A stretch of DNA of 64,000 nucleotides from Octopus sinensis (lineage: Eukaryota): contig NC_043002.1 in the NCBI RefSeq assembly GCF_006345805.1, forward strand, positions 79,298,001-79,362,000. The letters are read 5' to 3'. A model generated the notes under the pieces. It had not been told where the DNA came from. It ran no database searches and worked only from the letters and a program-made list of their open reading frames with translations. The position numbers and the translations under genes were made by a program. Each line of letters starts with the position of its first letter. Positions within the stretch are counted from its first letter, which is position 1. Positions 6,596 to 49,681 of this stretch are shown in pieces.

Positions 6596-6860
6596 TCACC
6601 TTCGAAACGCAGAGTAGATGAAACCATGGCGACTGAAGAAGGGGAATTTTCCTTGTGTTATTTGTCCTGTACTCTTTTTCTTTTCGATGTTTAAGAAAAA
6701 TGTCCAGTTCCTTGGCTTTGTGTTTATGTTTTCGTTTCTCATTGTGTTCGACGTTTTTTTGGGTGTCCTGTACCCATATATGCATGTATATATACATGTA
6801 GAGGTAGGTACGTACATATATGTATGTATATATGCGTATGTTTTATTTATTAATTTACTA
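6596..6860 (+). mobile_element. (TA)n-embedded module 1: pLTR-like tail with only the 3' half of a hammerhead
   Basis: Flanked by TA runs. Begins ccttc-GAAAC-gcaga-GTA-gatga, i.e. the GAAA, stem III and cleavage-triplet half of an HHR, followed by a T-rich tail. Confidence 0.45.
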
Positions 6861-6970
6861 TATATATATATATATATATATATATATATATATATATATA
6901 TATATATATATATATATATATATATATATATTACGGAGGTGTACTTGCATAGCGAGATGCAGCACGACTC

Positions 6971-7021
6971 TTTGTCAGTGAACAGGTCGCGGTCTCAAAG
7001 CGACGAAAATATTTTGACAAA
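6971..7021 (+). ncRNA. Minimal type I hammerhead-like fold with G3:C8-swapped core (in TA-flanked module 6931-7101)
   Basis: Stem I tttgtca/tgacaaa (7 bp); core GUGAACA; extra G; stem II gtcgc/gcgac; GAA; palindromic stem III AAUAUU; H17=U. Confidence 0.65.
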
Positions 7022-7145
7022 TTAAATTTAATGTTGAAGTGAATCTGACGGTTTTGTGTGTTTCTTAAATAGCTTATAAACACCTTCCACGCTGCAATTG
7101 TATATATATATATATATATATATATATATATATATATATATATAT

Positions 7146-7561
7146 GAATAATGAGAGAGACGGAAGATGGAAGATACGAGAAAGTTTATTCATCACTATA
7201 ATTGTTTTGACCCATCGAGTATCGATGCTCGCAGGATGCATTCTTAACAACTGGCTTTGGAGTATCCAAATTCTGTCTCTTCAGATGGAAATGTGCCTCT
7301 TCGGGTGATATTACAAAATGTGCCCCCTTAAAATACTGTTCCTAAAGATATTTTCTCGGTTTGTGTATAGAAAAACAGCAAATTAAGGGACACAACTTCA
7401 TTATTATATAAGAAGTATTATATAGTATTATATAGTTTGGGTATGAAATGCAAAATAAGTATATATGCATACAAAAATCGATCTCCTGAAAAGACATCGG
7501 AATATTAGTTTGAATCTTTTGAACACTACTGTCTTGTATACGGAGAATCTCATCTGTCGAC
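7146..7561 (-). mobile_element. (TA)n-embedded module 3: pLTR-like element with a mutated hammerhead and a poly(A) signal
   Basis: Minus strand reads cat-CUGAAGA-gac-(~70 nt with two hairpins)-gtc-AAAAC-aatt-AUA-gtg, then AATAAA. G12 is mutated to A. Confidence 0.55.
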
Positions 7562-7600
7562 TATATATATATATATATATATATATATATATATATATAT

Positions 7601-8057
7601 AGGTCGTATACTGTCAACTCAATGTGACAGTCCCGTAAGGGAATTACACCACCGCCATTCGACGTCTCCTGTCGGCTTTGACACATTTCCTGTGTCCTTA
7701 TATTTGCAAAGGGGAGGCAATCACTCCCGCCAGCCGGGACTGAGCACCTGAAGACATATGTTTCTGAGTCTATTGCTCATCGTCAGGGTAGCTAGTCCAG
7801 CTCGCTGAGATGACTGCAACCTCTTCGCAAATATATCATATTTACAGTAAAATTCACTTACTGATTAACGAAATTAGAAATATGGAATTTCTAAATGTCT
7901 CAGAGAGACATAAGTGGTGGTGGAGCGATATAGTGGTCGTATACTGTCAACTCAATATGACAGTCCCGTAAGGGAATTACACCACCGCCATTTAGCCCTT
8001 GGAAACATCGACGTCTCCTGTCGGGTCCTTATATTTCTGTGTCCTCATATTTCAAAT
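7601..8057 (-). mobile_element. (TA)n-embedded module 4: terminally redundant 333-bp unit carrying a hammerhead core
   Basis: Direct repeats start at 7602 and 7935 (ggtcgtatactgtcaactcaat.tgacagtcccgtaagggaattacaccaccgccatt). Minus strand 7753-7786 reads CUGACGA-UGAG-caauaga-CUCA-GAAAC-AUAU-GUC. Confidence 0.7.
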
Positions 8058-8184
8058 TATATATATATATATATATATATATATATATATAATATATATA
8101 TATATATATATATATATATATATATATATATATATATATGTGTGTGTGTGTGTGTGTGTGTGTGTGTGTGTGTGTGTCTTTGCG

Positions 8185-8385
8185 TTTCACTTCATACCGT
8201 TTGACAAACAGTATTGGTTTGTTTCCATACCCGTAACTTTACAGTTCTGCAAAACAGATGGATAGAATAACCACCAGACTTTAAACTGGGTAGTGGGATC
8301 GATTTGTTCGACTGTGCTCAAAGCAGTGCTCCAGTATGGCTGCAGTTCAATAACTGAAACTAGTGAAAGAGATATTGCCACACAT
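8185..8385 (+). mobile_element. SINE family A, 3' part
   Basis: gatttgttcgact...gtgctccagtatggctgcagttcaataactgaaac matches the family A tail. Confidence 0.7.
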
Positions 8386-9084
8386 GTACCAGATATAACA
8401 CTGATAGTGTTACTTAGACACCACAAGATCGACAACACAAGACCTCTATATTAGCACCACTGACACTGTTAGTGATAAACTATATCACCAACAGATAGGG
8501 TTAGTTTATAAACTGTAAAATCAACCCCCACGTGTCCTTTGTAATATCCTCCTCCCTCTGACAGTGTTTGCGATAGACTGTAAGATCAACATTTATCTCT
8601 GTACTTTGACGTTGATATTAAAGTGTTGACATCAGATCTACAACAATTTTCATAAACGAATTATTTGGAAGCCAAACAGTCTTCTTTCAAGTTCTTTGTT
8701 CAGTCGCAAGGTGTGATATTCACACACACACACACACACACAGACATACACACACACACTCAGATGTTTTGCATTTTATTTATAACTCTGTTAGACCTTG
8801 TAACCACACTACTTTGATGAAATAACTAACATATGTAAGTTTAGATTCGCCATGATGTCTCCCGAGCGTCGCCGGTTGCTAATACAATAACATTTCGGTC
8901 CCTTGGTTGAAGAAGTATTTACTGCAAATAATCCGTGCTGTTCCTGAAAGAGACCCTTAATTCTGAACGACTTAGTCAACTTAGAGGCGTCATGGATTAG
9001 CAAGGGTCAGCGAGGGAGTCCCTACAATCTATATTGTCGAATATCCTGCTGAAGATAATAAAACAAATATCTACTAAATTAATA

Positions 9085-47364: not shown

Positions 47365-47480
47365 TACGAGGGGTGTATGAAAAATCTTGAGCCTCAAAAG
47401 AATAATCAAAACAAAATATGGTACAAGACTTCAAGGCTCAAAGGACTTGAATGCTCAAAACTTTTCATACAAGGTGTAAA
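47365..47480. mobile_element. Small mariner-type MITE remnant
   Basis: TA-cgaggggtgtatgaaaaatcttgagc pairs imperfectly with gctcaaaacttttcatac. Confidence 0.55.
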
Positions 47481-47531
47481 AAATAGTACTCGAACACCAG
47501 AGGTAGAGTAATGTATAAATACATAGGGTAA

Positions 47532-47866
47532 AGACCCCCTTCGGTCATGAATGACCATGGGATTGCACCTAGAAAGTTACCCTCCTAGACACAAGTCCGG
47601 GCAAGGTTGTTTATGGAAGACCAGCAGTCGCCCATGCATACCGGCCTCCCCTCTCCACGCCACCAGTGTTATCCAAGGGAAAGACAAAGGTCGATACAGC
47701 TTGGAACCAGTGACGTCGCAACTCATTTCTACAGCTGAGTGAACTGGAGCAACGTGAAATAAAGTGTTTTGCTCAAGAACACAACACGCAGCCCGGTCCG
47801 GGATTCGAGCTCACAACCTCACGATCGTAAGCTCGACGCTCTAACCACTGAGCCATGCGCCTTCAT
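47532..47866 (-). mobile_element. tRNA(Arg)-derived SINE family C, full length
   Basis: Near-identical to 32447-32778. Confidence 0.9.
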
Positions 47867-47998
47867 AAATACATACATAAATACATAAATACATACATAC
47901 ATACATACATACATACATACATGCATACATATGTACACACACACACATATATATATATATATATATATATATATATATATATATATATATATATATAT

Positions 47999-48290
47999 AT
48001 CTGTAAATGTAATATGTGACAATTATTTGGTAGCCATGATAAAACTCCGAGTTTCGGATGCCGAGGTGAAAATGCACGCCGCCATCTCTTCAGTTATCCG
48101 GTCAGCATTTTTCCGATGGCCTGATAAGTGAAGTGAAGGCGACGTGGATTTCCACCTCGGCATCCGAAACTCGGAGTTTTATCATGGCTACCGAATAATT
48201 GTCACATATTACATTTACAGATAAATTCCTCTATTTTTAATAATATCGAGGTCTCCTTCATTCTTTTGTTGTCTTACCATTTTTATCAGT
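47999..48290. mobile_element. (TA)n-flanked pLTR-like module with an inverted 5' duplication (hairpin 47999-48222)
   Basis: About 70-bp near-perfect outer arms and imperfect inner arms. The right arm continues as a T-rich tail to 48290. Confidence 0.85.
48038..48098 (-). ncRNA. Type I hammerhead-like fold in the left arm of the hairpin
   Basis: gauaa-CUGAAGA-gaug...cauc-c-GAA-ACUC-G-GAGU-U-uuauc: 5-bp stem I, long imperfect stem II, near-palindromic stem III. Confidence 0.65.
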
Positions 48291-48311
48291 ATATATATAT
48301 ATATATATATA

Positions 48312-48527
48312 CATTTCAAAATGTGACCTCGTGTGTACCGTTGGCGATTTTTTTCCTCTGTCTTCTCTTCTCTGGATCTTTCCTTCTCCTATGTTTCTGA
48401 CGAAGAGCTCCGCTCGAAACGTTAAACCTTCCTTCTTTCCTTCTTTCATGAGCGTCCAATAATAGTATATTTGTTCCACGTCCTCGCGTTATTGTGTTTT
48501 TTTGTGTTTTCTTGTTTGGATTAACTA
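48312..48527 (+). mobile_element. pLTR-like module with a minimal hammerhead, inserted in (TA)n
   Basis: Same family as 44657-44876, with TA runs on both sides. Confidence 0.85.
48394..48426 (+). ncRNA. Minimal type I hammerhead ribozyme motif
   Basis: uuu-CUGACGA-a-gagc-ucc-gcuc-GAA-ACGU-U-aaa, identical to 44758-44790. Confidence 0.75.
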
Positions 48528-48812
48528 TATATATATATATTTGTATGTCTGAATGCATGAATGTGTGTATGTGTGTGTGTGTGTGCGTGTGTGTATGTGT
48601 GTATATACATGCGTGCGCACCTATGTGCGCGTATATATATATATATATATATATTCCGAAATACTTTTCTTATCCGACATGCAGTTCGAAAAAGCCCGCC
48701 ATTTACCGAATATATGATTTATAAACATTCCATGTGCTTGGTCAGAGTGAATAGATGTCTGTTCGTCTTCGTTAGGTAAGGTTGGTGGTTTATTTATGAT
48801 GTGTTCAGAATC

Positions 48813-48869
48813 AGTTCTGCTGATGATCATAGACGTAAGTTAAATGTGAAATCACGGTGATACAGAACT
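48813..48869 (+). ncRNA. Type I hammerhead ribozyme fold (in TA-flanked module 48655-48992)
   Basis: Stem I agttctg/cagaact (7 bp); CUGAUGA; stem II cat/atg plus gac-GUAA-gtt with a U.U first pair; GAA; stem III AUCAC-G-GUGAU; H17=A. Confidence 0.78.
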
Positions 48870-49681
48870 AAATTCATTTTTTAAATGTCTTGCTTTGAAG
48901 AACTGCATTAGGTATGATTAGTGTAATTTTGGTAGTAATGACTTTGTCCCTCTTAGTGTGAGGCATTTATGTGTAATAATGCCCTCTATACAATATATAT
49001 ATATATATACGCGCACATAGGCGCGCACGCATGTACAAGTACCATCTTCCGCGTTGTCAATGCAGTACCCATGGTCTGGAATCTCCCTTTTTCGGTTGAG
49101 AGATTGTGTTGTGTAAAAGCATTGAACAATATGATTAAAAGTAATAAACCTACCAGAATTTCAGTGTCGTCATTTAATCAAAACACGGGCACCGATCTCT
49201 TGGTAAGAATGACTGAGATGATTATGGAAGTTGGTATTTGAAGTTAGGCTCAAGAGAGATTTCAATATTTACAGCAATAACTCCAATACTATAGTATTTC
49301 CCATAACACCTAATAATTATTACATTTTTTTTCATCATGGTCCATGGAGCCAGTACTTATTTGGTAATGTCCTTAGCGGATCAAGGATAAATAAATAATA
49401 CACTCTGCTAGAAAGGTCACCCGGTTTCATGCAGAGATTTTATGTTTAGCTCCGCGGAAGCAAATTCATATTGCAGAAGAGATTCATAATGCGTCATTGT
49501 TTTACTGACGAATCGCTCAGCATCTAAAATTTCACACATTTCAAGTTCGTGTTACGGCGTCGAAGTTCTGCAGAAGCGTTTACTTTGGGGTTGCTTCCTG
49601 TCATGTTCTTCCTTGACAAAGTTAAGCATTTGTCCACGTGATAGAATTTTATCTAATAACTAATATCGTAAAAATCAATTA

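Follow-up and report, generated by a model that had tools for sequence, protein, structure and literature searches.

The window analysed here is a stretch of 64,000 nucleotides (64 kb) from the genome of Octopus sinensis (contig NC_043002.1 of assembly GCF_006345805.1, positions 79,298,001 to 79,362,000), numbered below from its first letter. It is an AT-rich animal sequence with 177 tandem-repeat rows, and simple repeats make up about 16% of it according to our own mask. Scattered among these repeats are short modules with minimal type I hammerhead ribozyme motifs, and next to one of them lies the decayed remnant of an open reading frame (ORF) of a Penelope-like element (PLE). The modules most probably derive from the ends of such elements.

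Hammerhead motifs in the window

Six motifs with a complete core and three stems are present, 6978+, 34129+, 44787-, 48093-, 48397+, and 48820+, which corresponds to one per 11 kb, a lower density than the approximately one per 7 kb suggested by an initial annotation of the same DNA. That annotation listed nine sites, five of which are indeed complete (6978, 44787, 48093, 48397, and 48820); 30527 has one core change, 7786 is irregular, 6599 and 7284 are unsupported, and the complete motif 34129+ had been overlooked. A strict descriptor of the type I hammerhead, with any Watson-Crick 3:8 pair permitted, retrieved four motifs (6978+, 34129+, 48397+, and 44787-), among which C3:G8, U3:A8, and G3:C8 all occur, with a Watson-Crick pair every time. 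When this descriptor was scored, four motifs reached a score of at least 10, where 25 local dinucleotide shuffles averaged 0.08; 30527+ (A6>U) was next in rank. The second descriptor added 48820+ and 48093-, giving six motifs, whereas 300 shuffles averaged 0.083 and never had more than one; the excess over shuffled controls anticipated by the initial annotation is thus confirmed in the window, at a figure that is optimistic because the second descriptor was loosened at the stem II base after the sites were known. At E<=10, the Rfam hammerhead models matched neither 6932-7100 nor 48000-48990, and no hammerhead was among the best 150 of the 497 rows for the whole window.

All six complete motifs have a vestigial stem III that is palindromic (AAUAUU, AUAU, and twice ACGU) or, in two cases, near-palindromic with a one-nucleotide centre, and four of them (6978, 34129, 44787, and 48397), as well as 30527, have an extra unpaired nucleotide between A9 and position 10.1. 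Both features had been noticed at the outset and hold for the revised set. The base of stem II (10.1-11.1) is G-C in 6978, 44787, 48397, and 48093, G-U in 34129, and U-U in 48820. The minimum-energy folds of 6978 and 34129 contain stems I and II around an open core, with z-scores of -2.3 and -1.5, respectively.

The first complete motif occupies 6971-7021 on the plus strand, within a module (6932-7100) that lies between a (TA)36 tract at 6859-6931 and a (TA)22 tract at 7101-7145. It has a stem I of 7 bp, a stem II of 5 bp, the palindrome AAUAUU as stem III, and H17=U at 7014, after which cleavage is predicted; its 3:8 pair is G3:C8 (G6978 and C6983), and it belongs to a high-copy family that starts near 6955. 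The second motif (34123-34165, plus strand, predicted cleavage after 34159) has a U3:A8 pair, stems I and II of 6 and 5 bp, and AUAU as stem III. It is followed at a distance of 45 nucleotides (nt) by the tract (TTA)23 at 34205-34274, and the nearest repeat upstream is 646 nt away.

Two further motifs represent one family, hereafter family A, with a C3:G8 pair, a stem II of 4 bp, and ACGU as stem III. Copy 1 (48312-48525, plus strand, 214 nt, core 48397, stem I of 4 bp, predicted cleavage after 48423) lies inside (TA)n, and copy 2 (44659-44872, minus strand, 214 nt, core 44787, stem I of 3 bp, H17 at 44761) inside a (CTAT)n tract at 44549-44994, which it splits and which is abutted by the PLE ORF remnant. 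The module at 30491-30650 (plus strand), located between (TA)n tracts, carries the hammerhead 30527 with the single core change A6>U; since it has both the core and the downstream sequence in common with family A, the initial estimate of seven unrelated families was slightly overstated.

The remaining two complete motifs lie in the same region as copy 1. A head-to-head inverted pair of putative PLE ends at 48001-48222 has an intact core on its minus arm (48093, H17 at 48043) and a damaged one on its plus arm; the intact motif, one arm of a 208-nt inverted repeat, combines a stem I of 5 bp and a long imperfect stem II with the stem III ACUC-G-GAGU. The motif at 48813-48869 (plus strand, core 48820, predicted cleavage after 48862) has a stem I of 7 bp, a near-palindromic 5-bp stem III, AUCAC-G-GUGAU, and a stem II weakened by the U-U mismatch at its base.

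Microsatellite context

A TA-type repeat lies 45-131 nt downstream of the cleavage site in all six complete motifs, while only 17.5% of non-repeat positions in the window have such a repeat within 150 nt on a given side. Under independence this gives p of about 3e-5, an assumption violated by the three motifs clustered at 48 kb. The initial annotation placed every module between microsatellites; this is not exact, as 34129 is flanked on its 3' side only and the 48093 module on its left side only. The proposal that microsatellites serve as landing pads is supported by family A. Its two copies are 87.5% identical over 208 nt and end identically on both sides, but copy 1 is flanked on both sides by (TA)n and copy 2 on both sides by (CTAT)n. 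Since the same ends occur within different repeats, the repeats are target DNA.

The family with the G3:C8 core

In the core of 6978, the two bases of the tertiary C3-G8 pair have changed places, a compensatory swap. The initial annotation had placed this motif among possibly mutated folds, leaving the swap unremarked; it is no mutant, as G3:C8 is the consensus of its family. Parts of the module were found in 21 of 24 listed sequencing runs, labelled with six organisms, although nine of the 21 have fewer than five words and carry no weight. Contigs from four of the 24 runs were aligned at 80% likeness. Three of these runs, which are labelled as DNA or carry no label and come from organisms A, C, and D, contribute 4,042, 7,744, and 3,467 contigs to the family; another 329 contigs come from a run that is only guessed to be RNA (X10), none of the runs listed with the module being on record as RNA, and are not used as evidence of expression. 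Dividing 779,000 by single-contig depths of 7-21 and by an overlap of up to 31, we infer at least about a thousand copies, the summed depth itself being no copy number.

At positions 6978-6984, 7006-7008, and 7013-7014 no other letter reaches 4%, at a summed depth of hundreds of thousands. Variants above 10% occur in the fold only at 6996 in loop II (16-24%) and at 7017 in stem I (14-23%, with a U-G wobble kept). The CpG positions of the family change at 3.6-8.7%, and G12 at 2.4-3.7%. Such a distribution of changes suggests that master copies are under selection while dispersed ones decay, and because this decay affects CpG sites, most of the latter are probably dead monomers. The live community of ribozyme elements envisaged initially is accordingly not shown: this is the one family whose variation was examined, and the variation is largely CpG decay. 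As a control, the G3:C8 core-plus-stem II pattern had 31 prokaryotic matches and one viral match, none of which completes stems I and III.

The depth of the family collapses upstream of approximately 6955, where loose ends with poor consensus appear, which hints at a defined 5' end. The first 23 nt of the window module (6931-6953) are seldom joined to it in other copies (depth of about 100 versus 50,000 just downstream) and may derive from the 3' tail of the family in inverted orientation. Opposite-strand joints within the family fit inverted insertions.

Family A in metagenomes

The core-plus-stem II pattern of family A was searched in metagenomes and yielded 97 loci, apparently host animal DNA; most of them come from one large family, so that the following counts are not independent. 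H17, which lies outside the pattern, is C at 84 loci, U at 11, A at two, and G at none. Positions 1-3 of stem I, also outside the pattern, are paired at 91, 88, and 71 of the 97 loci, respectively, and position 4 at 16; the pairs alternate among C-G, G-C, and A-U. The same pattern had no match in viral contigs.

Remnants of PLE ORFs were identified upstream of the core at six of the 97 loci (L019, L005, L010, L030, L052, and L086), using as queries ORFs from two of the loci only. A seventh match, at L017, was in a non-coding frame only and was dropped. The clearest case is L019, where a reverse transcriptase (RT) and a GIY-YIG-type endonuclease with a CX2CxxC linker lie in the sense orientation 0.7-2.2 kb upstream of the hammerhead. 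At 4-1551 of this locus, read in the hammerhead orientation, they form a nearly intact Neptune-like RT-endonuclease ORF with one frameshift, and the hammerhead follows approximately 680 nt past its stop codon.

Because two independent copies in the window have both ends in common, we lean towards family A being a unit-length non-autonomous element or a solo pseudo-long terminal repeat (pseudo-LTR), rather than the outcome of random 5' truncation.

A GAGC sequence complementary to the 3' strand of stem II is located 20-45 nt past the cleavage site (48451-48455; 44729-44733 on the minus strand; 30575-30579). It occurs in all three window copies and in some of the metagenome families (L009, L017, L020, L023, L034, L048, and L074) and is missing from the largest one. 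It could conceivably act as an off switch, although the clustering into families was crude and no covariation was evident.

Remnant of a PLE open reading frame

A decayed, 5'-truncated PLE ORF with RT, thumb, linker, and the start of the endonuclease occupies 45000-46661 on the plus strand, adjoining (ATCT)30 and interrupted by many stops and frameshifts. An exhaustive protein search with this ORF returned 248 relatives at E<=0.001, with 2e-21 as the best value; the closest relative is from an oyster, in keeping with a molluscan source. A word-indexed search considered 14 candidates and gave no match, and Pfam detected nothing in three frames of 45001-46703. Among 12 long relatives scanned, RVT_1 is present in ten, GIY-YIG in nine, and both in seven; the CX2-5CxxC linker, decayed in the window copy, occurs in 28 of 38 relatives of at least 440 amino acids. 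A profile of these 38 relatives, which were themselves found with this same stretch, matches 45000-46536 at 1e-25. The alignment of the remnant covers the RT and the thumb and extends into the first part of the endonuclease region; when applied to the whole window in six frames, the profile revealed no second remnant. By domain order and linker, the ORF is provisionally assigned to the Neptune/Nematis type of PLEs. For a connection of family A copy 2 with this neighbouring ORF, which was also considered, no support emerged. Two inverted repeats in which no hammerhead is present lie at 46897-47160 and 53378-53441; the former interrupts the region past the ORF and may be a miniature inverted-repeat transposable element.

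Irregular sites and other repeats

The module at 7602-8057 (minus strand) is a partial tandem, with 7607-7705 repeated at 7940-8052. It has an intact core at 7786 and the palindrome ACAUAUGU as stem III, whereas its stem I is not contiguous with the cleavage site. Such partial tandems and the head-to-head pair at 48001-48222 are both layouts known for PLEs (PMC8557442; this and the other publications below are cited from the parts of them available to us).

The candidate decayed hammerhead 7284- (7190-7290, minus strand) has G12>A, a change expected of CpG decay, and G17, and is no better than chance (fold z-score 0.14). Two small hairpins sharing a GAUACUC loop occur at 7210-7265 on the same strand, between its half-cores. 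At 6599-6612 (plus strand) there is a 3' half-motif alone and no confirmed hammerhead (fold z-score 0.47): no 5' core lies upstream, and the sequence CUGAAGA at 6633 sits downstream. Nor does 6599-6645 qualify as a permuted (type II) hammerhead, as the stem I hairpin does not form. Further CUGANGA sites with remnants of a stem III palindrome or of stem I are found on the minus strand at 5830-5880, 21680-21720, and 42706-42766; they are possibly older decayed hammerheads, with folds no better than those of shuffled sequences.

Several other repeats were observed. A 110-nt inverted repeat with 99% identity (57948-58057 and 58169-58278) surrounds (CA)n(TA)n(TG)n; no hammerhead was found in it, and either a head-to-head pair or an artefact of fold-back is conceivable. 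Near-identical tandem duplications between TA-rich tracts at 17721-18738 and 19547-21132 (411 nt at 98% and 244 nt at 96%) reflect either recent duplication or an assembly error. About three 175-nt tandem units of an abundant repeat resembling short interspersed elements lie at 49680-50430, with more copies at 28342, 33292, 35738, 36218, and 60180; dispersed repeats of this type are octopus repeats. By eye, translations of 25700-26900 (plus strand) and 27300-28000 (minus strand) resemble decayed endonuclease and RT fragments of long interspersed elements.

Discussion

We read the motifs as the hammerhead-bearing ends (pseudo-LTRs) of several PLE families, present as short solo inserts, and put the probability of this at roughly 85%. 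It draws on the folds and their excess over chance, the microsatellite context, the inverted and partial-tandem layouts, the PLE ORF remnant, and the high copy number and fixed pair of the G3:C8 family. The PLE origin proposed by the initial annotation is strengthened both by the decayed RT and endonuclease-linker ORF in the window and by the position of the family A-type core downstream of ORF remnants in metagenomes.

A number of observations weigh against this reading. In the window no hammerhead module is continuous with a PLE ORF; the ORF at 45000-46661 is more decayed than family A, with 120 nt of repeat between it and copy 2, and the G3:C8 family has no tested link to any ORF. In metagenomes, only six of the 97 loci show an ORF remnant, and only four have a microsatellite within 400 nt, so that the targeting of microsatellites is not general for the family A core. 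Finally, the predicted monomer folds of family A, 30527, 48093, and 48820 pair core bases instead of forming the hammerhead, which means that thermodynamics alone does not favour the active form, and the predicted dimers of family A and 30527 mostly make no use of stem III.

The published minimal hammerheads of PLEs described by Cervera and De la Pena in 2014 are similar to those in the window: they are of type I with a short stem I, form many families, mostly as solo copies, and occur as opposite-strand pairs (PMC4209133). The same paper counts about 4,000 heterogeneous solo minimal hammerheads in the coelacanth genome and about 9,000 in that of Xenopus, and already contains the U3:A8 variant, the palindromic stem III, and an additional base following A9. 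The window differs in its local density and in its family with a G3:C8 consensus, since all 56 motifs in Fig. S3 of that paper, none of them from a cephalopod, start with CUGA or UUGA. Neptune, Nematis, and Hydra PLEs (Craig et al. 2021, PMC8557442) resemble the window and its ORF relatives in the C-terminal GIY-YIG domain with a cysteine linker, the bias towards (TA)n, the partial tandems, the inverted 5'-truncated copies, and a hammerhead that in the window, too, would lie in the pseudo-LTR; unlike in these elements, no intact copy is present in the window, and one family also uses (CTAT)n. A repeat annotation of Octopus vulgaris describes a PLE expansion with 31 recently active Penelope-like families, ribozymes being unmentioned in the part available to us (PMC13282606), and in the literature on octopus and cephalopod hammerheads we found no description of these motifs.

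The best-surviving alternative, which we nevertheless consider improbable, is that the modules are active non-LTR retrozymes, whose tandem units self-cleave to monomers, circularise, and reinsert. Non-LTR retrozymes (Cervera and De la Pena 2020, PMC7229834; Li et al. 2026, 10.64898/2026.07.22.740005) are likewise short, non-coding, and hammerhead-bearing, with monomers common, and both they and the window modules are probably mobilised by enzymes of PLEs; in Acropora, over 6,000 hammerheads are reported (PMC7229834). The preprint derives retrozymes from PLE ends, treating them as PLE derivatives, and observed cleavage in one of nine dimers (10.64898/2026.07.22.740005). Head-to-tail joints of the G3:C8 family do exist (7089 to 6971 at a depth of 1,588 and 7026 to 6971 at 3,227 in run X6), and the 329 contigs of the presumed RNA run could be counted on the same side. 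However, these joints amount to about 0.1% or less of the core depth (3.9 million in X6), the window contains no tandem array of complete units and no tandem with two complete hammerheads, and its folds are minimal whereas those of retrozymes are canonical (PMC7229834). Moreover, the family A copies end alike with the ribozyme in the middle of the unit, not at the cleavage site.

It is still less probable that the microsatellites were generated by the elements themselves as slippage tails, as might be supposed from the repeat near the 3' end of every complete motif. Family A is surrounded by (TA)n at one site and by (CTAT)n at the other, several unrelated families and the PLE ORF are stacked in the same tracts, and the (TA)n bias of PLE clades is published (PMC8557442). 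We give slightly less credence again to the idea that the dispersed copies still function as ribozymes against transcripts of the host, which retains them for this purpose: the rate of change at G12 is roughly half that of the CpG positions next to it, but both G12 and C11.1 still decay by CpG transition, four of the nine initially listed sites are damaged or partial, and the monomers have no stable stem III. Chance matches in AT-rich repetitive DNA would fit 6599 and 7284, with their folds no better than shuffles, and a loose descriptor yields 1.2 weak matches per shuffle at score 5, yet for the six complete motifs this explanation is refuted by the shuffles of both descriptors, the stem I pairing at the 97 loci, the conservation of the G3:C8 family, and the failure of all 32 prokaryotic or viral matches to complete stems I and III.

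If the modules are indeed PLE ends, they could have arisen as follows. A master copy would be transcribed, and an RT-endonuclease of the Neptune/Nematis/Hydra type would nick (TA)n, (TAGA)n, or (TTA)n and prime reverse transcription 50-130 nt downstream of the ribozyme. An early stop of copying, or a short template, would then leave inserts of 150-450 nt, at times with an inverted second copy. Since each insert spans its cleavage site, the template would have been uncleaved RNA. Uncleaved RNA is also the insertion template of the Poseidon element PAc of Anolis, which has a minimal hammerhead as well and depends on its own protein for ribozyme activity (Frangieh et al. 2024, PMC11167929). The palindromic stem III of 4-11 nt appears too weak to be stable within one monomer and is instead expected to pair two copies with each other, so that cleavage would need tandem transcripts, a partner RNA, or an element protein; minimal hammerheads are reported as inactive when monomeric and weak as dimers (PMC4209133). 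Selection in master lineages would keep the fold, with its three different 3:8 pairs and differently paired stems, and the dispersed copies would decay afterwards, solo copies being mostly silent.

The motifs thus mostly belong to an already known class, the minimal hammerheads of PLE pseudo-LTRs in microsatellites; the new detail is that a family with many copies in several species has G3:C8 as its fixed core pair. That C3 and G8 pair in the active hammerhead was demonstrated by double mutants, and U3:A8 covariation occurs naturally (PMC3088659, PMC4209133). For G3:C8 we found only engineered mutants in the literature (PMC3884650, PMC8495972, PMC11167929), although a natural case may be listed by Lunse et al. 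2017 or in the figures of PMC3088659; in PAc it is an engineered C3G/G8C double mutant with partly restored cleavage, in contrast to the natural family consensus described here. Motifs of this type are missed by standard CUGANGA descriptors and by Rfam, so genome counts may be too low. Taken jointly, the data allow a bolder reading that we regard as possible but doubtful: a hammerhead load among the densest in animals, with complete motifs in the order of one per 10 kb, to which a unit-length non-autonomous PLE family contributes thousands of copies, is common to several species, and has as its core pair the first natural G3:C8.

If this is true, families with C3:G8, U3:A8, and G3:C8 in one genome would form a natural series relating the rate of cleavage to PLE mobility. 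A many-copy family with a partly active G3:C8 swap would give access to selection on a tertiary pair in a natural retroelement, and would bear on the role of PLE hammerheads, cleavage being dispensable for insertion in vitro (PMC11167929).

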